Below, one piece after another: positions 1,958 to 54,429 of a stretch of DNA of 64,000 nt. Every line of letters begins with the position of its first letter. Positions within the stretch are counted from its first letter, which is position 1. The notes below the pieces were generated by a model that was given only the letters and a program-made list of their open reading frames with translations, did not search any database and had not been told where the DNA came from. The translations under genes were made by a program, and so were the position numbers. The stretch is from Candidatus Poribacteria bacterium (GTDB taxonomy: Bacteria; Poribacteria; WGA-4E; WGA-3G), in contig OZ251518.1 in the NCBI GenBank assembly GCA_965242965.1, positions 4,192,001 to 4,256,000 on the forward strand. The letters are read 5' to 3'.

Positions 1958-2782
1958 TTAGCGACGGTGGTAGGATTTCATCTTCCCCCATGTCGTCGCT
2001 AATTTCCCTTCGGCTTTGACGGCCAGAGCCCTATCCGGTCGTGTGCCGTTCGCCAGGTCCTGCACCTCGTCCTCAGACAACGCCCGATCCCAGATGATGA
2101 TCTCGTCAATCATGCCATCGAGGAAGGTATCGTTCCCAGCGTTGCCGCCAATCTGCCGACCTGCACCGATTTCTAGGGGACGATCCTTGAAAAGGTTGTA
2201 AGGTTCAGGCGCGACTTGTGGATTCGCTTGGCCGCTGGCGGGAATGTTGATTTTGCCGCCATCTTCCTGAACATAAGCGATGGCTTCCTCACCGTCCGCC
2301 GTTTGACAGACATGATACCACTCCTCGGCATCAATAACACCATCAGTCCGCATCCAGTTTTCGGTACCACCATTGGTTGTGCCGAAGGTCATGTCGGTAT
2401 TATTAAGCGTGAGGAGTCGGAAGGTGAAATTAGCCCCCCATCCAACTTTTTCGCCTTTCCAAACGCCGGCGTGGTCTGCACCGTTTCGGACGTAAAGCCA
2501 ATACGATACGGTATGCGGTCCTTCAATGGCGTTTTCAAGCCCGGCGTTGAAAGGCACCTCGGCACGCGTATCTTTGCTTCCATCTACGTCCAACGCCTTG
2601 CCAAACCTGCCTTTATCAACGACCTTGGCGGCTTTGAAGAGTTCGCCGTGGGCATCACCGATGGCATCGGTGACTTTTCCATCGTCAAACGTCCACGCGG
2701 CGATGACTCCATCGTTCAGGTCTGCCTGCACAGAACCAATCGCCAGCGCAACGACGAAAATGACTGAAATAAGAAATTTCAT
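1958..2782 (-). CDS. Secreted LamG-like domain protein, paralog of 964..1803
   Basis: Signal peptide, WTFDDG, shared KGEKVGWGANF motif, GMIDEIIIWDRALS, KLATTWG tail; GGAGG RBS. Confidence 0.85.
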   Translation of the reverse strand: MKFLISVIFVVALAIGSVQADLNDGVIAAWTFDDGKVTDAIGDAHGELFKAAKVVDKGRFGKALDVDGSKDTRAEVPFNAGLENAIEGPHTVSYWLYVRNGADHAGVWKGEKVGWGANFTFRLLTLNNTDMTFGTTNGGTENWMRTDGVIDAEEWYHVCQTADGEEAIAYVQEDGGKINIPASGQANPQVAPEPYNLFKDRPLEIGAGRQIGGNAGNDTFLDGMIDEIIIWDRALSEDEVQDLANGTRPDRALAVKAEGKLATTWGKMKSYHRR

Positions 2783-2844
2783 TTAATAAACCTCCTCTAG
2801 TTGAGAGAGTGGACAGAGAGACAAACCTCCGTCCAATAAATTTG

Positions 2845-3137
2845 TAGGGTGATAGGCCTCGGAAGAGACCTGGTGCAACGAAAGTAGCCCGCGACGCAGC
2901 GGCGTGCGTCCGGGCACGAAGACAGTTCAACGGGAAATCCCGATGCTGCCTTACAACGTAAGAGATTAACGGACGTAAAGTGAAGGGGGGGGTCGATTCT
3001 GCCTAGCCGATTGTTAAAACAACCGTCAGCACGTGAGCGCGCGAAAGGGCTGCGCGCTACGCCGCCCGGATGCGCGTGACAACTTCTGGTCTTTTCGTCT
3101 CTGAAATTGATACGTGCGTTTCGCATGTCCATCACCT
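2845..3137 (-). ncRNA. Candidate structured leader RNA, copy 1
   Basis: Colinear motif and stem conservation with 53820..54188, including compensatory changes; lies between a sigma70-like promoter and the LamG gene. Confidence 0.55.
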
Positions 3138-3196: not shown

Positions 3197-3225
3197 AATA
3201 TACATAAATTTTAATTTTTTGTCAA
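3197..3225 (-). promoter_or_regulatory. Sigma70-like promoter
   Basis: Minus strand TTGACA-17 nt-TATATT with TG before the -10 box. Confidence 0.7.
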
Positions 3226-3336
3226 CTTTTTTTGTCAAAAAAAATCCCGAACGCAACAGAGCCCGATAGGAAAACCCGGCGGGTTGCCTTCTCCAAATTT
3301 CGCTTGCCCTATTTTTCATATCATGCTAAATTAACA

Positions 3337-4430
3337 GCGGGTGTTTCATAATTCGTTCAACGTCGCGGTGACAGGCCCCTGCTACGGTAACACCTAAGAA
3401 ATCGTTCCCTTTAACGTAGGGCGAGGGCCTGTCCCTCGCCACGTATCAAGTTTTCCTTCTATACCGTAGGGCGAGGGCCTGTCCCTCGCCATGCACAGGT
3501 CTGAGCAGCAAACATCCGGGGTCTCTGGGTTGCAGGCGTTTTTCGCCGAGGTCGGCAGATCGCGGGGGACAGGCCCCCGCGCTACGGAAAAAAACGGCGT
3601 GCGTTACCGTAGGGCGAGGGCCTGTCCCTCGCCGTGCCTAAGGTCCTTTAGGTCCTTAATGTCTATAGATGAGCGGGATTAACGGCACCCTAAGGTCCTT
3701 TAGGTCCTTAATATGATTTTTCATGTCTTGTCTCCCGCACATTAAGGTCCTAACGGACCTTGAAAAGTTTGGCAGACCGGGGTTGCTATAGACATGCAGG
3801 ACCTAAAGGACCTGAAGAGGCATCCATTGCAAAAAAAGAATGCTCGTTGCGCGGGAGATAATCCTGGAAATCGTGTGAATCTTGTGAATCCTGCTTCAGA
3901 CGATTAAGATCGCGGGGGACAGGCCCCCGCGCTACGGTAACACCTAAGAAATCGCCCCCGGGCACCGTAGGGCGAGGGCCTGTCCCTCGCCGTGCCTAAG
4001 GTCTGTAAGACCTTAATGTCTATAGCATCTGCATCGCACAGCATCCTAAGGTCCTTTAGGTCCTTAATATGATTTTTCACGTCTTGTCTCCCGCACATTA
4101 AGGTCCTAACGGACCTTGAAAAGTTTGGCAGACCGGGGTTGCTATAGACATGCAGGTCTTAAAAGACCTGAAGAGGCATCGATTGCAAAAAGAGTGCTCG
4201 TTGCGCGGGAGATAATCCTGGAAATCGTGTAAATCTTGGAAATCCTGCTTCAGACACTTAAGAGCGCGGGGGACAGGTAATTTGTCTCGTCTCTGTAGTT
4301 CAGGATCGCCTGATCCTGACCCGTTCGGGAGCGGGCGCTCCCGAACTACAGCGGTGGGCCCGATGCCTTCCGGTATTCGCCCGCTCCCCAAGGGGGAATA
4401 AATACCGAAACGGAGTTATGAAACACCCTC
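3337..4430. mobile_element. MITE-like element (14-bp TIR) filled with REP modules
   Basis: Ends GCGGGTGTTTCATA / TATGAAACACCCTC; flanking direct repeat AAATTAACA (9 bp). Confidence 0.8.
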
Positions 4431-4474: not shown

Positions 4475-6718
4475 GTGCAGATTACCCAACAATACGCCAC
4501 CAACCTAGCCGCGCGCCTTCGTTGCGCTTTTTGCACGTCCCTCATCGCGCTCATCTTCCTCGTGGTGTCGGGATGCGATGAGAAACAGCCGCCCGCACCG
4601 GTGCCGGAAGTCGCCGAAGTCGCTACCCCTGTCGAATTTCCAAAACCTCGCGTCGCGGATTGGCACATGTTTATGCATGATTTAGACTTTTCCGGTGTTA
4701 GCGCGGATAAGACGCTCACGCCGCCGCTCCAGTTGCTATGGCAATTCAAAACCGGCGGCCCACTTCACGCTTCACCCGTAGTCGCAAACGGCGTTCTTTA
4801 CATCGGCTCAACCGACGGCAAATTGTATGCACTGAATGCCAAGGCGTGGGACATCAAATGGGTTTTCGACGCAGGCAGTGCCATCCGTTATGCCGCGACT
4901 GTGTTGGGAAACCGAGTCTATTTCAGCGCAAGGAATAACAGAGTTTACGCGCTCAACGCCGAGACAGGCGAGTCGGTGTGGGAGTTCAAATCCACGAATT
5001 GGATGGACGCGCCGCCGATTGTCGTCGATGGGAAACTCTATATCGGCGCGTTTCCGTCAAAAATTTATCAATTGAACGCGATGACCGGCACGCTTGAAGC
5101 GACGCGCGAACGCACCGTCAGGATTCGCGGGATTGAATACGGCTGCGCGAACGGCGTATTCCGTCCGGTCTCCCCACTCTACAATGCAAAGTTGTGGCGA
5201 GCCCAGACAGCGGGAAGCAACAGCTATCCTATCATCGCGAACGGGTTCGTCTATATCGGCGCGCGCGATGGGCATATCTACGCGTTTGACGAAACATCGA
5301 AAACGGAAACGTGGGCATATCAGACGCGCGGTTTTATTGACGCGGCACCCGCTATCGCCGAAGGCATCCTCTACGCCACCTCCGGTGATGGGACAGTTTA
5401 CGCCTTCGGAAACGCCTCGTCTCATCCTGCAGACGCGCCTGCCAGTCCCACGCGCGCGGTCGGCATCGTCACGCACGATAACGCCGCTGTTTACGTCAAT
5501 AGGGGCGCGACGACAGAAAAACCGGCAGAGAAACCACTCCTGCACCTCAACGACAACGTTGCGCTGCCGATTCTGCAATTCGCCGATGGATGGTATGAAG
5601 TTGAACTGCCGAACGGCGAACGCGGCTGGATGGATACCCTCGCCTTCGGAGAGTTTGAAGAGACAGAAGGCGTGCTGTTTAACACAAACTTCTGCGGCAA
5701 GCGGCGGACATTACAACTCGTTGAAGGCGCAGAATACCCGCGCTGGAGCCCCGATGGCGAACTCATCGCGATGCTGAAAAGAACCGAACTCCGCGGCAGA
5801 TACTGGCAGGCGAGTGAACTGCTCATCATGGACAAAGAGGCGAAACGGGTGCGCAAACTTTATACAGCAAACTCGCAGGCTTCCCAGAGTGCCATTTACA
5901 ACCCGCATCTCTCCTGGTCCCTCGATAGTCGCCTCTTGGCGTTTGAAGTGGACGAAAAGACTGAACGTTACGTTTACACCATAGATTGGAAACTCGGCAG
6001 GGTTAAAAAGTTAGTCCGAGGCGACGCTCCCGCCTGGTCCCCCACGTCAAACCGCCTCGTGTTTCGGCGGCGCGATAAAGGGTTGGATGTCATCTACCGC
6101 ATCAACAGCGATGGAAGTGCGATGCAGGCGATTGCGCGTGTGCCAGTTGAACCGCGGAAGCGCGCTTACACCTATCTCCCCGCGCCAACTTGGGCACCCG
6201 ATGGGACGCGCGTGGCGTTTGGTGTCCACAATCAGAAATATGTCGGCATCCGCATCCAAGGCGCAAACGGGAAACGTTTGAAGGAGATACCGACGCAGCA
6301 TCAGCACGTCGCGCACATCAACTGGGCGGCAGATGGAACGCAACTCGCCTATGTGTTATCCGGTAGCAACCGTCCGGGGCAACTCCTTGATAAGCAACTC
6401 CACCTCGCCGATGCGATCTCCACGTCAACCCAGACGCAGATTTTGAGGCACACATCGCCAACTTGGGCACCGACAGGGAAGCGGCTATCGTATTTAGAAC
6501 GCGAGGATTGCGAGGGGCTCCGCTGGAAACTCTGGATTTACGACGCTGAAACCGGGCGCAAATTCCCGATTGCCCGAACGCAACTGAAGGTGACATCTGT
6601 CGTCTGGATGCCAGATGGAAAGCATCTCTGCCTGTGGCACACGTCAGATTACCTCCGCGATAACGCCTATAAACCGGCGATAACGAAGGGGTGGATTGTG
6701 CCCATTGAGATACCTTGA
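4475..6718 (+). CDS. Lipoprotein with PQQ-like (BamB-type) beta-propeller, SH3-like domain and TolB/PD40 propeller
   Basis: LVVSGC lipobox-like motif, repeated 'W.F......SP.V.NG.LYIG', WYEVELPNGERGW (SH3), repeated 'P.WSPDG'; GTG start at 4475 (the ATG at 4418 lies in a TIR). Confidence 0.8.
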   Translation: MQITQQYATNLAARLRCAFCTSLIALIFLVVSGCDEKQPPAPVPEVAEVATPVEFPKPRVADWHMFMHDLDFSGVSADKTLTPPLQLLWQFKTGGPLHASPVVANGVLYIGSTDGKLYALNAKAWDIKWVFDAGSAIRYAATVLGNRVYFSARNNRVYALNAETGESVWEFKSTNWMDAPPIVVDGKLYIGAFPSKIYQLNAMTGTLEATRERTVRIRGIEYGCANGVFRPVSPLYNAKLWRAQTAGSNSYPIIANGFVYIGARDGHIYAFDETSKTETWAYQTRGFIDAAPAIAEGILYATSGDGTVYAFGNASSHPADAPASPTRAVGIVTHDNAAVYVNRGATTEKPAEKPLLHLNDNVALPILQFADGWYEVELPNGERGWMDTLAFGEFEETEGVLFNTNFCGKRRTLQLVEGAEYPRWSPDGELIAMLKRTELRGRYWQASELLIMDKEAKRVRKLYTANSQASQSAIYNPHLSWSLDSRLLAFEVDEKTERYVYTIDWKLGRVKKLVRGDAPAWSPTSNRLVFRRRDKGLDVIYRINSDGSAMQAIARVPVEPRKRAYTYLPAPTWAPDGTRVAFGVHNQKYVGIRIQGANGKRLKEIPTQHQHVAHINWAADGTQLAYVLSGSNRPGQLLDKQLHLADAISTSTQTQILRHTSPTWAPTGKRLSYLEREDCEGLRWKLWIYDAETGRKFPIARTQLKVTSVVWMPDGKHLCLWHTSDYLRDNAYKPAITKGWIVPIEIP

Positions 6719-6729
6719 AAAAAATAATC

Positions 6730-7133
6730 AAGGGGGTTTCATATTTCGATGCAATACCGTAGGAGAGCCCTCCCTGTCTCGATGTTCCCGTAGCGCGGGG
6801 GCCTGTCCCCCGCGAGCGTTGGCGTGCGCGAGGCATGGCGAGGGACAGGCCCTCGCCCTACGGTAAGGGGGAGGCGTTTTTTTCGTCGTAGCGCGGGGGC
6901 CTGTCCCCCGCGAGCGTTGGCGTGCGCGAGGCATGGCGAGGGACAGGCCAACGCCCTCCGGTGAGGGGGAGGCGTTTTTTTCGTCGTAGCGCGGGGGCCT
7001 GTCCCCCGCGGGCGTTGGCGTGCGCGAGGCATGGCGAGGGACAGGCCCTCGCCCTCCGGTAAGGGGGAGGCGTTTTTTTCGTCGTAGCGCGGAGCCTGTC
7101 ACCACGACGTTGAGCGAGTTATGAAACATCCTC
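6730..7133. mobile_element. MITE-like element with tandem REPIN units
   Basis: AAGGGGGTTTCATA ... TATGAAACATCCTC; 8-bp direct repeat AAATAATC on both sides. Confidence 0.8.
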
Positions 7134-51409: not shown

Positions 51410-53527
51410 TTATCCGCTGCTGGCATCCTCCTCTTCCGGCAGATCCTGAGAGGTCCGGTAATTGTGAGCTTCAATGCCCAGTTGCTGGAAGTTATTTGCC
51501 GTTTTGACAATCGCCATCGCTTTTCGGCGTTCGTCCTCTGAGACAAAGTCAACTAGTTCCTCCGCGCGTTGAATCATCTCAGCTACAAAAGGAGGCGGAG
51601 TCAACTGGGTTACAGTTCCTGTTTCCGGATCTAGTTCCTCCAGCAATGTCTCCTGGGCTGCGCTTTGTGCCTCTGGCGTTAGCGCAATGATAAGCATCGC
51701 ATCAGTCTCCGTGGAATCGGCCAAGAATTCGGATCCCTCTAAAGTCCTCACATCAGCACCGGCTGAATCAATCGATTCTTGAGTCTCACTTAACGCGGCG
51801 GTTATCTCATCGGCATCAAGTGCAACTTCACCTGCTGCACTAGCGGCACTAGCGATTTCGCCGAGGTCGCTTAGGAGATCAATAAGACCTGCCCCGGGTA
51901 TTAAAGCCAATGCCACCCCAATCCCTTTCCTGACCAGGCGCCGCCGTGCCTTGCGCTGGACTTCGTCGCGGAAGTTGCTATATTCCTGGACGGTTTCCTC
52001 GTAGTTCTCGCGTAGACCCTGGTAGTTCTGCTCAAGGCCTTGGTAATGTCCGACCAGCCGCTTGGAACGATTGGACTCACTCCGAAGTGCGGCACCGCAA
52101 ACTTGTAGTGATACCTCACAGAGATAGAGCCCCCAGAGAGCCGCTTGGTTACTCTGAGTTACCTCGTCTAAATTGGTTTCAAGGTTCGCACAGCGTTGGT
52201 ATTCCTGAGCCAGTTGGGTTTCTAGCGTTTCGCGATGCTGTCGGACTTGCCCAAGTTCGTTTTCCAAGGTCTCGCTGCGCTGGCGTTCCTGCGAAAGTTC
52301 GTTTTCCAAGGTTGCGCATTGCTCGCGCGCCTCCGCAAGATCGCTTTCCAAACTTTCACACCGCTGGCGTTCCTGCGAAAGTTGGCTTTCTAGCGTTAAG
52401 CACCATTCGCGTACTTGCGCAAGTTCGGTTTCCAAATTCCCGTACTGTTCAAGTGCTTGTGTGAGTTCGCTTTCCAATTCTGCGCATCGCTCACGTGCCT
52501 GTGCCAATTCGCTGGAGATACGCGCGTTGAGTTGATTGGCCTCCTCCAGGGCCTGGACATGACGTGCAATCTCCCCGTTAGCGTGATTCAAGTCACTTTC
52601 CAAGGTTGCGTTCGCTCGTTCAAGTTCCACGTGCCGCGCGTGTGCCTGTGACAAGTTGCTTTCCAGGGTCGCGTTCGTCTGCTCCAATGTTGCGATTTGG
52701 GTATTCGCGTGTTCCAAACCGCTTTCCAAAGTTGCGTTATTCCGTTGGAGTTCGACATTCCGCGCGTTTGACTGCGACAAATCGGTGTCTAAGGTTGCGT
52801 TTCTCTGTTCCAGGTCTGCACAACGCGTGTTCGCGCGATTCAAGTCGCTTGTAAGATTCACGTTGGTTTGCTCAAGTTCAACGTTGCGCGTGCTTGTCTG
52901 CGCCAAATCACTTTCCAGGTTCGCGTTCGCCTGTTCCAGCCCCGCAATTTGGGTATTCGCGTGTGCCAAACCGCTGTCTAAGGTGGCGTTAGTTTGTTCG
53001 AGTTCAACATGCCGCGCGTGTGCCTGCGTCAAGCTGCTTTCCAAGTTCGCGTTCGTCTGTTCAAACTCTGCACAACGCGTGTTCGCGTGATTCAAGTCGC
53101 TTGTAAGATTCGCGTTGGTTTGTTCAAGTTCAACATGCCGCGCGTGTGCTTGCGTCAAGTTGCTTTCCAGGGTCGCGTTCGTCTGTCCCAGTTCGGCGAT
53201 TTGGGTATTCGCGTCTGCCAAACCGCTGTCTAAGGTTGCGTTATTCCGTTCAAGTGCCACGTTCCGCGTGTTTGCCGCCGACAAATCGCCGTCTAAAGTG
53301 GTGTTCCTCTGTTCCAGATCCGCGTTCTGTGTATTCACCAGCGACAAGTTGCTCGTTAAACTCGCGTTCGTCTGCCTGAGTTCCTCCAATTCTCCAGAGA
53401 GACGTTCATTGCGGGTAGCGGCATGAGAGAGGTTATTGGTGAGGTCATTCTTCTTTGAGAATAACCATGCTCCCACTCCCACACAAATAATGAGTCCTAT
53501 GAGAAGCACGATAGTTACGGGATCCAT
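51410..53527 (-). CDS. Membrane-anchored long coiled-coil protein with 21-aa and 14-aa tandem repeats
   Basis: N-terminal TM (IVLLIGLIICVGVGAWLF); repeats such as ELEQTNANLTSDLNHANTRCA, then LESQLSQERQRCES; hydrophobic GIGVALALIPGAGLI. Confidence 0.8.
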   Translation of the reverse strand: MDPVTIVLLIGLIICVGVGAWLFSKKNDLTNNLSHAATRNERLSGELEELRQTNASLTSNLSLVNTQNADLEQRNTTLDGDLSAANTRNVALERNNATLDSGLADANTQIAELGQTNATLESNLTQAHARHVELEQTNANLTSDLNHANTRCAEFEQTNANLESSLTQAHARHVELEQTNATLDSGLAHANTQIAGLEQANANLESDLAQTSTRNVELEQTNVNLTSDLNRANTRCADLEQRNATLDTDLSQSNARNVELQRNNATLESGLEHANTQIATLEQTNATLESNLSQAHARHVELERANATLESDLNHANGEIARHVQALEEANQLNARISSELAQARERCAELESELTQALEQYGNLETELAQVREWCLTLESQLSQERQRCESLESDLAEAREQCATLENELSQERQRSETLENELGQVRQHRETLETQLAQEYQRCANLETNLDEVTQSNQAALWGLYLCEVSLQVCGAALRSESNRSKRLVGHYQGLEQNYQGLRENYEETVQEYSNFRDEVQRKARRRLVRKGIGVALALIPGAGLIDLLSDLGEIASAASAAGEVALDADEITAALSETQESIDSAGADVRTLEGSEFLADSTETDAMLIIALTPEAQSAAQETLLEELDPETGTVTQLTPPPFVAEMIQRAEELVDFVSEDERRKAMAIVKTANNFQQLGIEAHNYRTSQDLPEEEDASSG

Positions 53528-53819
53528 TTTCAGCCTCCTCACTTCTGCGTGGCCGGGATTGTTTTGCGTGCCCAACTGTCAGAAGTGTGAAACGGTACCG
53601 GATTAAAAACACCTGCCAACGTCCAGTCACTTTCGCGTTCGTCATCGATGCTTCTCCGTTTACCAACCCTATCAGCGTTTTTTGCTGCAGACGCGCGGCG
53701 GACGCGCGCGACCGCGCCTCGCCGAGGCAAAAAACGCGCAGAAGTATCCAACGAAAACAAGGGATAACAAACAGAGGAGGTGAAAACGGAAGCGAGTGCA
53801 ACCAGAAATCTGGCAGGGA

Positions 53820-54188
53820 AAACATGCACCGGGGAAGGAATCCCGATGCAACGAAAATAACCCGCCACGCAAAGAATGCGTGCGGGATTGAAGACAGCAT
53901 GACGACGAAAGTCGCCGCTGTTAAGTGAATAAACTTTGCTTAACGCCTGTGGGTGTCGGGGGGGGTCGAGCCTCCCCTCTGGGCATTAAGCCGAACGGGA
54001 ACTCGTGACGGCGCGACAAACGGGCCAGACGCGCACCGGATGTGCGGCATCTCGCGGGGCCCGGGCAGGTCTACGGCGACCTTTTTCGCAATGGAAGAAT
54101 CAATTCGCTGGTTCACGGTATCGTTCCTTGTTCAGCAAGTTTGCGGATTTCAGTCTCATGGTGGCGCGTTTTTTCGCGTGCATCACCA
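53820..54188 (-). ncRNA. Candidate structured leader RNA, copy 2
   Basis: Homologous to 2845..3137 with covarying stems and an ~80-nt insertion. Confidence 0.55.
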
Positions 54189-54199
54189 CGTTGGCATTA

Positions 54200-54228
54200 A
54201 TGATACACAAAAACGTGGGAAATGTCAA
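54200..54228 (-). promoter_or_regulatory. Sigma70-like promoter
   Basis: Minus strand TTGACA-17 nt-TATCAT with TG before the -10 box. Confidence 0.7.
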
Positions 54229-54429
54229 ACATTTTTCGCGAAAAATCGTGGAAATGTTCACAATTCACCACATTCTAGATGAATTTCGGTTTTTTGTCAA
54301 CGTTTTTCTACGAAAAATCGTGAAATCGGTCGAATTCGCGCGAAAAATCGCCAAAAATGTTTAAAACTGATTTTATTTTTGCAAATGTCGCGTTTTTTGT
54401 CAAGGTTATTTCGCGAAAAAACGCTGCTG

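Follow-up and report, generated by a model that had tools for sequence, protein, structure and literature searches.

The two related stretches in the window analysed here (64,000 nt of contig OZ251518.1 from a Candidatus Poribacteria bacterium), hereafter copies A and B, are copies of a large unannotated leader-cassette family in sponge-associated Poribacteria. Both are read from the minus strand of the window. The 5′ end of the cassette holds one to three consensus sigma-70-type promoters, followed in the majority type by a 5′ hairpin and then by a Shine-Dalgarno sequence and start. A small ORF of 40–60 codons (up to 61) carries in its last part a pure run of 8–13 C, which encodes Pro-Pro(-Pro) in any frame, and a near-invariant UAA stands 4–6 codons further on. 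After the UAA come a domain of about 120 nt made of three hairpins (Pb, Pc and Pd) and then the ribosome-binding site of an unrelated gene. We hold with moderate confidence that the cassette is a cis-acting, translation-sensing leader, its mechanism (stall, frameshift or tract-length switch) being what we infer from these parts. It is a new RNA family for Rfam, joined to a small ORF that annotation pipelines have left unnamed.

The features of copy A are:

3197–3225, minus strand: promoter-like site TTGACA-17-TATATT (11/12 by consensus scan), aligning with the promoters of other copies
2797–3135, minus strand: leader ORF from the ORF list, running through the C run and the entire hairpin domain to TAG 2799–2797
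2985–2992, minus strand: C8 tract in the sequence, Pro-Pro in any frame
2966–2968, minus strand: conserved UAA inside GUUAA, at the aligned stop position and out of frame with the copy A ORF
2853–2968, minus strand: 3′ hairpin domain, matched by the 3′-domain model R1 at 95.7 bits
2921–2950, 2888–2914 and 2856–2876, minus strand: helices Pb, Pc and Pd
2780–2799, minus strand: junction of TAG 2799–2797, Shine-Dalgarno GAGGAGG 2797–2791 and LamG ATG 2782–2780
1958–2782, minus strand: gene behind the cassette, LamG/Laminin_G_3, 274 aa, secreted-looking (Pfam PF13385, E 2.8e-15)

Those of copy B are:

54403–54375, 54300–54272 and 54228–54200, minus strand: three tandem promoter-like sites by consensus scan, the last being TTGACA-17-TATCAT (11/12)
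54160–54189, minus strand: 5′ hairpin GGUGAUGCACGCG-A6-CGCGCCACC, near the transcript start and conserved in type-B copies
53940–54116, minus strand: small ORF of 58 codons, with Shine-Dalgarno AAGGAA, GUG start, the ending ...GGSTPPDTHRR and UAA 53942–53940
53958–53965, minus strand: C8 tract, read ACC CCC CCC (Thr-Pro-Pro), with a C CCC CCC heptamer
53823–53942, minus strand: 3′ hairpin domain, R1 match of 145 bits
53893–53922, 53861–53886 and 53826–53849, minus strand: helices Pb, Pc and Pd, the last terminator-like and followed by UGUUUUCCCU
53525–53941, minus strand: -1 frame, stop-free over the 401 nt between the UAA position and UGA 53541–53539
51410–53527, minus strand: gene behind the cassette, a 705-aa coiled-coil protein with an N-terminal hydrophobic segment

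What the initial annotation read from the two places was confirmed, and the similarity far exceeds chance. The block TGCAACGAAAGTAG...GAAGACAG lies at 2874–2925 and its counterpart at 53847–53897, including the compensatory swap GACGCA/TGCGTC versus CACGCA/TGCGTG and the stem that keeps its shape (CGGG-AAAT-CCCG versus CGAC-GAAA-GTCG). In each copy, TGCAACG is followed 119 nt later by a G run with TCGA (at 2993 and 53966). The minus-strand promoters at 3225–3197 and 54228–54200 each score 11/12 by consensus scan, and the leaders given as ~410 and ~670 nt measure about 408 nt in copy A and about 666 nt in copy B. Homology of the distal CATCACC match is improbable: copy A has there the Shine-Dalgarno/start region (GGTGATG) of the small ORF, copy B an arm of the 5′ hairpin.

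Rather than being present twice, as had been counted, the cassette occurs about 22 times in its own genome: a profile built from copies A and B finds 22 places at E <= 1.1e-16, and R1 gives 24 matches. Most of the family has 1–22 copies per genome. At least one match to the covariance model of the 3′ part was found in 49/61 family genomes. Among other sampled genomes of the same family, the model matches 81/99; outside the family, it matches 1/51 genomes from other families of the phylum. All of these counts, and those below, overstate independence since the copies are related by descent. Nearly every copy, copy B included, escaped a BLAST search of the own genome with copy A, and a profile search was needed. 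Similarly, BLAST of copy B retrieved the element in only 4/41 related genomes, a limit of sensitivity as the covariance model showed. With the full-length sequence profile only the 3′ domain is recognised in other genera; the 5′ part was compared across genera by eye and by translation.

As the initial annotation had proposed, the element stands 5′ of genes and is co-oriented with them: in 67/70 copies, cassette and following gene share a strand, the gene starting within a few hundred nt. The cassette is retained at orthologous loci, namely LamG (in three genomes, G000, G001 and G002) and an ABC-2 permease (G000 and G001); no R1 match was found upstream of the LamG ortholog of G009 (73% identity). 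The products encoded downstream are unrelated (LamG, coiled-coil, cohesin with a T9SS tail, tyrosinase, TPR, FRG-TPR, dockerin-like, trypsin-like, Big_5, ABC-2 permease, and many without a family), and most often they are secreted, lipoprotein or membrane proteins. They lack the single metabolic or transport theme expected behind a riboswitch, and include none of the proline-related genes expected behind a leader-peptide attenuator that senses proline. A RiPP precursor family was dropped, as there are no shared modifying genes downstream.

The claim of a real, conserved, covarying RNA-level element held for the 3′ part. Cells pair at 91.0% on A5, 88.5% on A6 and 88.3% on A9, and two-sided changes are seen in 15/29, 25/29 and 28/29 pairs, respectively, the last two values coming from two separate sets. 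None of 500 shuffles reaches the observed values, and slid controls pair at 31–55%. The domain folds at an MFE of -45.8 kcal/mol (z -3.19) in copy A and -47.2 kcal/mol (z -6.83) in copy B. Six genera retain it, with compensatory changes. The frequent G-U pairs fix the strand as the minus strand of the window; a plus-strand RNA was discarded because these pairs would turn into C-A and the fold is weaker. Pd was called terminator-like in copy B and not in copy A, and at least 5 U within 10 nt after Pd are found in 37/73 copies. An IS-associated guide RNA, a retron and a group I/II intron were also set aside, there being no such genes nearby and varied neighbours.

No known Rfam family accounts for the domain. 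With Rfam 15 at gathering score, there were no matches on the whole window nor on the 20 loci with other own copies (129,250 bases). Scans by E-value of copy A and four more copies gave unrelated weak matches only, away from the element; copy B was scanned at the gathering threshold only. A possible Rfam motif "Poribacteria-1", named in the initial annotation, would share the phylum and the character of an intergenic conserved RNA, and no family of that name is among the matches at E up to 1–10 on the stretches scanned.

The proposed structured RNA of ~300 nt stands in part: structure is conserved across genera only for the 3′ ~120–145 nt, and the 5′ part lies in the small ORF. The 5′ G run (a C run on the RNA), CGTGA, CCGGATG and the GCGCG stem, which had been taken as RNA structure, all fall inside this ORF, and the 5′ ~180 nt resemble a small translated ORF more than plain structured RNA. 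This was followed in two copy sets, of 73 copies and, for replication, 61 copies. A stop is found at the aligned position in 69/73 and 58/61 copies (127/134 together). Upstream of this stop, its frame stays open over 40 codons or more in 49/73 and 31/61 copies; the corresponding counts for the two other frames are 25/73 and 19/73, and 18/61 and 8/61. For 33 copies from other genera the values are 24 for the frame of the stop and 1 and 5 for the others. The Shine-Dalgarno and start are conserved, and indels among type-B copies are multiples of three. The Shine-Dalgarno, start, kept frame and conserved stop argue for a translated leader and not for a riboswitch-like RNA. The copy B small-ORF peptide has 22 unnamed homologs in the protein collection.

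The peptide itself is weakly constrained (median dN/dS 0.68–0.80, with no clear third-position excess), so the open frame could be a by-product of RNA-level constraint, and six leader peptides gave nothing in Pfam or NCBIfam at E up to 1. CCC makes up 146/704 of the Pro codons in the long ORFs of the window, which identifies the C run as a homopolymer and not an effect of codon usage. The main contig contains 118 runs of C or G of at least 8, 19 of them in the 22 matches; the presence of a tract alone is thus no marker. The upstream ORF is in a frame other than that of the conserved UAA in 23/73 and about 26/61 copies, some of which may be assembly homopolymer errors or decayed copies. GUUAA persists even where it is out of frame (copy A and its orthologs are examples), which hints at an RNA-level role for the motif.

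The two other frames tend to be open through the hairpin domain. Frame +1 is stop-free in 42/73 copies and frame +2 in 61/73, compared with 41–42% in dinucleotide shuffles and 22, 10 and 13 of 73 on the reverse strand; both frames are open in 22/33 copies from other genera. In the replication set they are open in 40 and 41 of 61 copies, and both in 24 (Markov resamples: 34%, 34% and 12.5%). In about one third of copies, an alternative frame ends at the ribosome site of the downstream gene. Such an end near the gene start was found for 22/68 copies, against a shuffled mean of 11.65 (14/20000 shuffles reach the observed value), and for 19/61 copies of the replication set, against 12.69 (287/20000). 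The replication holds for the wider window only: for alternative-frame stops 5–25 nt before the start, the second set showed no enrichment (7/61, with 6.90 expected). In the own genome, 8/22 copies have an alternative-frame stop 12–21 nt before the gene start. The open frame used varies by group: it is -1 in type B and mostly +1 elsewhere. Type-B copies have a -1 frame that is closed 15 codons ahead of the UAA position and stays open for 236–401 nt beyond it, and a C CCC CCC heptamer lies where the zero-frame ORF overlaps the open alternative frame.

Judged by their sequences, copy A is fixed in the read-through frame and copy B is in frame 0, with its -1 frame open up to the Shine-Dalgarno of its gene. 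The possible starts of the copy A ORF are GTG 3135, ATG 3132 and ATG 3126, the last matching the starts of other copies. Copy A and its G001 and G002 orthologs have read-through ORFs of 111, 100 and 116 codons that end 17–18 nt before the LamG ATG; the orthologs keep read-through to the same TAG by way of a 33-nt deletion and paired, compensating -1/+1 and +14/+1 indels. The junction of alternative-frame stop and gene start reads UAGAGGAGG in copy A. In copy B, where the alternative-frame stop before the gene start reads UGAGGAGG, the -1-frame UGA abuts the Shine-Dalgarno GGAGG 53538–53534 and lies 14 nt from ATG 53527–53525.

From these data we propose the following course of events, in which translation of the small ORF, the switching of frame and the regulatory output are inferred from sequence. 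The ribosome translating the small ORF would be the sensor. At the C run it would pause (on polyproline, in an EF-P-dependent manner) and/or change frame, the frame also being set by the genomic length of the C tract. In frame 0, termination at the UAA would leave the hairpin domain folded, after which Pd may serve as a terminator or the leader may remain closed. Since the domain is stop-free in the other frames, ribosomes in these frames are proposed to run through and unfold it. In about one third of copies they would reach the Shine-Dalgarno/start of the gene, giving translational coupling and anti-termination. A more specific form, which we put forward tentatively, makes the C run a programmable gate: the exit frame would decide between termination at the UAA and a run through the hairpins to the ribosome site, and would itself be set by tract length together with EF-P- or tRNA-Pro-dependent slippage during the stall on polyproline. 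The genome encodes efp and tRNA-Pro(GGG). If the gate operates, some twenty surface or secreted-protein genes per genome would be under translation-status control or heritable switching.

Several known systems resemble parts of the cassette. In the pyrBI attenuator, the leader ORF (pyrL) runs through the attenuator hairpin. The cassette shares with attenuators of this kind a short ORF with a Shine-Dalgarno (here 40–61 codons) in a long leader, special codons near its end (here Pro-Pro(-Pro) 4–6 codons before the stop), hairpins behind, and the expectation that the ribosome position decides hairpin formation; the copy A ORF also runs through hairpins, as pyrL does. PMC5021804 describes an E. 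coli experiment in which polyproline placed ahead of the pyrL attenuator led to more termination when EF-P was missing. The cassette differs in that its critical codons are a homopolymeric C run, about 20 copies occur per genome, the genes behind it have no link with proline or with one another, and its hairpins form a conserved three-helix unit, with a U tract that is weak or absent in many copies.

The Salmonella mgtCBR leader contains the proline-codon leader ORF mgtP and shows EF-P-dependent pausing. As in mgtP and ugtL, consecutive Pro codons in a leader or overlapping ORF would tie translation speed to expression or frame; for ugtL, bioRxiv 10.1101/2024.09.11.612453 reports an EF-P pause that affects a frameshift. 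Both are, however, single loci of an enterobacterium, with no conserved downstream RNA domain or homopolymer, and have no sequence or structure similarity to the cassette.

Programmed frameshift sites are known from dnaX, IS3 orfA/orfB and prfB, and tRNA-Pro undergoes +1 slippage at CCC-C. The cassette likewise has a perfect X XXY YYZ heptamer (C CCC CCC), structured RNA downstream, a zero frame that closes soon after the heptamer and an alternative frame that is closed before it and open after. Papers on the subject include PMC5009743, PMC4519876 and PMC12340085. Unlike such sites, the cassette has no stimulatory helix at 5–9 nt: no conserved helix was found at this distance from the C run, the first covarying helix (Pb) lies ~40 nt away, and a possible helix between GUUAA and an upstream UUAAC would enclose the C run and not follow it. 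Moreover, the direction of the open frame differs between groups, and the putative frameshift product looks like a by-product and not a protein. A recoding-based, multi-copy cis-regulator of this kind was not described in the literature searched.

Phase-variable homopolymeric tracts are a feature of contingency loci in Neisseria, Haemophilus and Campylobacter, and the cassette could similarly mediate heritable phase variation. Slipped-strand changes in the length of the C run in the leader would toggle between the UAA-stop and read-through frames, giving an ON/OFF switch for the surface-protein gene. Common to both are a C/G tract of 8–13, surface-protein genes and copies in different frame states. 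The tract varies greatly in length from copy to copy (from 2 to 34 and most often 10 among the 61 copies; 7 to 11 in the own genome), all three frame states occur (31, 18 and 8 of 61), most out-of-frame copies retain an intact upstream ORF, the two remaining frames are both kept open, GUUAA/UAA is conserved even out of frame and the genes behind encode mostly secreted or surface proteins. We nevertheless consider this explanation unlikely. The tract sits in a leader ORF, whereas contingency loci have it in the gene under control or in the spacer of its promoter; the cassette keeps its other frames open, and the one locus tested showed no length variation. At that locus, copy A, contigs of four runs from four studies contain no C8 indels and share the same tract length, as consensus data in which minority variants are hidden. 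Furthermore, the three copy A orthologs share the read-through state, with changes compensated elsewhere, and frame 0 is over-represented, fitting selection for one state. Two scans of metagenome contigs for C-run lengths from other assemblies returned no stretches.

It is distinctly unlikely that the cassette works purely at the RNA level, the reading of the initial annotation, as a riboswitch-like or protein- or sRNA-binding cis-regulator with an incidental open frame and a C run that is a binding or pairing element (for example, a site for Rho or a C-binding protein, or a partner of the flanking GUUAAC palindromes). Against such a regulator stand the conserved Shine-Dalgarno and start, a frame kept over large divergence and indels of 6 and 9 codons, the single aligned stop position in 127/134 copies, the scarcity of stops in the two other frames, the indels that compensate one another in the orthologs of copy A, and the want of a common downstream pathway of the sort found in riboswitch regulons. 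What would fit it are the strong covariation of the 3′ domain, covarying stems within the type-B ORF region (GGGCC/GGCCC versus GGGCA/UGCCC), the dN/dS near 0.7–0.8, and the conservation of the pure C run and GUUAA at the nucleotide level.

The cassette could also be a stand-alone gene family that acts in trans, its product being a small protein and/or an RNA of ~330–370 nt ending at Pd and made from its own promoter. The consensus promoters, the terminator-like Pd with its U-rich tail in copy B, the 22 predictions of the peptide by gene callers and the many copies per genome, as in some sRNA families, agree with this. It is very unlikely given that a gene of like orientation follows 67/70 copies at a distance of a few hundred nt at most, that in neither copy A nor copy B did the consensus scan find a promoter-like site from Pd to the gene, that alternative-frame ORFs extend to the ribosome site of the gene, that the peptide is poorly conserved and without a Pfam or NCBIfam match, and that Pd of copy A is not terminator-like.

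The "mobile promoter" class reportedly described by Matus-Garcia et al. in 2012 comprises homologous 5′ regions before non-homologous genes, and within a single genome the cassette does put one promoter region in front of unrelated genes. That it is just a selfish or duplicated repeat with no role beyond supplying a strong promoter is nonetheless highly improbable. In favour of such a repeat, at least 16 near-identical type-B copies (77–92% identity to copy B) precede unrelated genes of the own genome, congener copy numbers differ (22 versus 11 and 11) and the copy B coiled-coil gene has no ortholog in five relatives. Against it, the domain shows conservation and compensatory changes over six genera, the cassette is kept at the orthologous LamG and ABC-2 permease loci, the homology ends are ragged and modular without terminal repeats, and the orientation is non-random. 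The left ends fall near -55, -105 to -140 and -240 to -370, and the right ends near +335 to 375, +405 to 445 and beyond. A MITE or another mobile repeat is likewise not supported, as these positions give neither sharp common ends nor TIR/TSD-like ones and 67/70 copies are oriented gene-ward.

Almost nothing is known of gene regulation in Poribacteria, which live uncultured as symbionts of sponges. Many of the genes preceded by the cassette encode LamG, cohesin/dockerin-like, Ig-like, TPR, protease or lipoprotein products, and such products are thought to mediate host contact. With about 20 genes per genome, six genera and products of this type, the cassette is likely to be a major control point. 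It also provides a natural case of a slippery, polyproline-coding homopolymer just before a conserved stop and an RNA fold, which makes EF-P-dependent stalling or frameshifting, or leader-borne phase variation, testable in bacteria as a general regulatory input. Finally, the named records that carry the motif are nearly all Candidatus Poribacteria.

All the motifs listed in the initial annotation, their 119-nt spacing and the compensatory swap were found in place in both stretches. The genes behind both copies lie on the minus strand, and the element is therefore read on that strand, from promoter through a small ORF with a C run and a conserved UAA to a 3′ hairpin domain and the gene. The genes are:

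1958-2782, minus strand, LamG protein gene, behind copy A
51410-53527, minus strand, coiled-coil protein gene, behind copy B

The proposed promoter-like sites at 3225-3197 and 54228-54200 each scored 11/12 in a consensus scan, and copy B has two additional such sites upstream. At 54200-54410 (minus strand), and before most copies that resemble copy B, two or three tandem modules of ~75 nt precede the cassette. Each module carries a near-consensus promoter and a repeated motif, TTTCACGATTTTTCGC(A)AAAAA, directly before the -35 box, which may serve as an UP element or be bound by a regulator. Near copy A, contig depth at 3329-3500 was hundreds to thousands of times that of the flanks in all four runs, with many loose ends; the region holds a REP-like hairpin element that is highly repeated and distinct from the cassette.

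The element had been described as present twice. A profile built from both copies located 22 places in its own genome at E <= 1.1e-16; a further place had an E-value of 6e-4. The majority (type B) resemble copy B, with 77-92% identity to it; type A, comprising copy A and one other copy, looks older. R1, a covariance model of the 3′ part (144 positions, 29 pairs, 32 sequences), gave 24 matches in the same genome and was found in 49/61 genomes sampled from the same family, covering all six genera at 1-22 copies per genome. With sampling extended to the phylum, it matched 81/99 other genomes of the family, and gave one weak match among 51 genomes of eight other families. An exact 23-nt pattern scanned over 185,579 species (one genome per species) gave 93 stretches; among the 80 listed, 68 were titled Candidatus or uncultured Poribacteria. 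R1 matched the 12 listed loci titled otherwise strongly at three "uncultured bacterium" loci, weakly (11-20 bits) at four Sphingomonadales loci and not at all at five. No Rfam 15 family reached its gathering score on the window or on 20 loci with other copies from the genome, in line with the suspected novelty, and scanning copy A and four more copies by E-value returned only noise. Full-text literature searches found no paper mentioning "Poribacteria-1", and nothing relevant on Poribacteria with "structured RNA" or "leader peptide".

Several irregular copies or candidate copies were observed. Two weak R1 matches in the own genome (G000:C1:1026003-1026147 and 5009501-5009643) have E-values of about 4e-3 and 5e-3; the first of these opens with a C12 run and is possibly a highly divergent copy. 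One copy is truncated to the promoter and the initial ~175 nt (G000:C1:31609-31773; locus L043, about 6634-7041); a degenerate full copy whose C run is broken (G000:C1:29256-29575) is found 2 kb away. In another genome, two 3′ domains stand in tandem on the same strand, 650 nt apart (L216, G004:C1:3192179-3192980). Loci L028 and L031 (G000:C1:2612466 and 3293358 regions) form a segmental duplication in which the cassettes accompany tyrosinase genes whose proteins are 98.8% identical; the homology reaches the +1400 edge of the compared stretch, and the duplication may extend further.

The position 5′ of genes proved consistent: in 67/70 copies, the frame that occupies most of the following 750 nt is co-oriented with the element. 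In the own genome, a same-strand ORF lies 57-740 nt behind each of 23 copies, most with a Shine-Dalgarno-like motif just ahead. The downstream products are unrelated and include LamG, coiled-coil, cohesin with a T9SS tail, tyrosinase (the duplicated pair), TPR, FRG-TPR, dockerin-like, trypsin-like, Big_5 lipoprotein and ABC-2 permease proteins, with several lacking a family; on visual inspection, about two thirds of them have a signal peptide, a lipobox or a membrane segment at the N-terminus. The cassette is kept at orthologous LamG loci in the own genome and two others (G001, G002), and at orthologous ABC-2 permease loci in the own genome and G001. Type-B homology ends in a ragged, modular way, with a common core that extends from the -35 box at ~-55 to +340-375, a short way beyond the last hairpin, and no transposon-like termini were seen at its ends.

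The original view of a structured, covarying RNA of ~300 nt held for the 3′ ~120 nt, where covariation was found in two sets, and was not supported as such for the 5′ part, which looks translated as a small ORF. Starting at a conserved GUUAA, the 3′ domain folds into three hairpins: Pb, made of an outer and an inner helix; Pc, a helix of 10 bp that has a single-base bulge and bears a distal insertion hairpin that varies; and Pd. UCUUC and CUAUUUUUGUUGCA are conserved single strands. In alignments fitted to the model, a bias in its favor, 88.5% of cells paired in 41 sequences from more than 30 genomes, with two-sided changes in 25/29 pairs (144 cells), and 88.3% in 61 independent copies (28/29 pairs, 211 cells). 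Slid controls paired at 33-55% and 35-47%, respectively, and 0/500 shuffles of the 41-sequence alignment reached the observed values. A hand-made alignment gave 91.0% pairing and 15 pairs with two-sided changes. Many pairs are G-U on the minus strand and would be C-A on the plus strand; the minus-strand folds are also the more stable (z of -3.19 and -6.83, against -2.19 and -5.25).

On the RNA strand, the "G run" of the initial annotation is a C run. In type B, a Shine-Dalgarno sequence (GAGGAA) and GUG open a frame of 57-59 codons that passes through the run as ACC CCC CCC (Thr-Pro-Pro) and ends at the UAA within an invariant GUUAAG. A stop occupies the aligned UAA position in 69/73 copies of the first set. 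At least 40 codons are open upstream in the UAA frame in 49 of the 73, versus 25 and 19 in the other frames (median open lengths 58, 18 and 15 codons); for the 33 copies from other genera, a manual table count gave 24, versus 1 and 5. The second set behaved similarly (stop in 58/61; UAA frame open in 31, versus 18 and 8). Starts with Shine-Dalgarno motifs recur, and the peptides of 40-61 residues have common patterns at the N terminus (M-(K/Q/N)-x-(R/Q)-x-(V/I)-N-x-x-I-(Q/A)-K) and at the C terminus (NYKL-x-PPP-x-x-I-R-stop). They matched nothing in Pfam or NCBIfam, and the protein collection contains 22 unnamed relatives. Within-group indels are whole codons. Constraint on the peptide is weak (median dN/dS 0.68-0.80), codon periodicity gave no clear signal and type B has covarying stems inside the ORF; therefore the frame, rather than the peptide sequence, seems to be selected. 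CCC accounts for 146/704 proline codons in the long ORFs of the window, yet the run is pure C, so the homopolymer as such matters.

Three GUUAA(C) motifs flank the C run, for example in L091, L095 and L109. Two make a small hairpin just before the run, and the third, after it, holds the conserved stop. GUUAAC is palindromic, so the middle motif could pair with either neighbor; in the other two frames, the motifs upstream of the run give UAA stops. Runs of 34 C (L253, G049:C1:133344-133506) and 17 C (L266) were also seen, either as real tract expansions or as assembly artifacts.

The upstream ORF is out of the UAA frame in 23/73 copies of the first set and 26/61 of the second (18 and 8 per other frame), and in most of these it is otherwise intact. 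Copy A is one: from ATG (3126) or GTG (3135), its ORF reads through the C8 run, the UAA and all three hairpins to a TAG at 2799-2797. This stop overlaps the Shine-Dalgarno sequence (GAGGAGG) and lies 17 nt ahead of the LamG ATG. An assembly slip was ruled out, as contigs of four runs from four studies showed no indel at the run. The orthologs in G001 and G002 reach the same TAG with ORFs of 100 and 116 codons, although they carry a 33-nt deletion as well as indels paired as -1/+1 and +14/+1, which restore the frame. An A>G change at 2799 in two of the four runs removes the TAG, and the next in-frame stop is a TGA overlapping the LamG ATG. A strain variant at 2812, a 15-nt insertion, preserves the frame.

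The hairpin domain of the first set is stop-free in 42/73 copies in frame +1 and 61/73 in frame +2, against 41-42% expected from dinucleotide shuffles and 22, 10 and 13 of 73 on the reverse strand. Both alternative frames are open in 22/33 copies from other genera. In the second set, 40 and 41 of 61 were open, and 24 in both (expected 34%, 34% and 12.5%). In copy B, the -1 frame is closed 15 codons upstream of the UAA position and afterwards stays open over 401 nt, up to a UGA abutting the Shine-Dalgarno GGAGG, 14 nt before the ATG. In the own genome, an alternative frame ends 12-21 nt before the annotated start in 8/22 copies and just inside the gene in four more. With automatic start calls and copies related by descent, alternative-frame stops fell within -20 to +25 nt of the start in 22/68 first-set copies with a recognizable gene versus 11.65 expected (reached by 14/20000 shuffles), and in 19/61 versus 12.69 in the second (287/20000). 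Stops 5-25 nt upstream were enriched in the first set (14 versus 5.58) and not in the second (7 versus 6.90), where the excess is located at overlapping stop/start arrangements. The clustering of alternative-frame ends at gene starts is thus suggestive.

Judged from its sequence, the anatomy is that of a translated leader. CCC encodes proline in all frames, so every ribosome would encounter Pro-Pro(-Pro) on a perfectly slippery C CCC CCC immediately ahead of where the frames diverge: one frame reaches the fixed UAA, the other two pass through the hairpins. We therefore think that what happens to the ribosome at the run determines which state the hairpin domain takes and, through it, the expression of the downstream gene. 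The route would be translational coupling and, where Pd is terminator-like (as predicted for copy B), a ribosome kept close behind the polymerase, as in pyrBI. The switch may act by stalling (kinetic), by +1 or -1 slippage (recoding) or through tract length (genetic). The genome encodes efp and three tRNA-Pro genes, one with anticodon GGG. Two reports describe a polyproline stretch ahead of pyrL that raises termination in E. coli lacking EF-P (PMC5021804), and a frameshift at Salmonella ugtL controlled by an EF-P-resolved pause (bioRxiv 10.1101/2024.09.11.612453). Weak points of the proposal are that no conserved helix directly follows the C run and that the open alternative frame differs between groups.

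Among known systems, the element would work most like a leader-peptide attenuator or a coupling leader. It shares a slippery site and overlapping frames with frameshift sites, but lacks a stimulator at their spacing. With contingency loci it shares the tract; however, C-run length did not vary at the single locus examined (copy A, contigs of four runs). A riboswitch would be expected to control a coherent regulon, which the unrelated downstream products do not form. The element lies outside every Rfam family tested, and there is an appreciable chance that it represents a new type of switch.

Behind Pd, at 53600-53760 (minus strand) and in the same region of many type-B leaders, lies a shared pyrimidine-rich stretch that includes CACCUCCUC, which resembles the 16S anti-Shine-Dalgarno sequence. 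These leaders also share a GC-rich hairpin in this region, ahead of the ribosome site of the gene; masking of the Shine-Dalgarno sequence is a possible role of the region.
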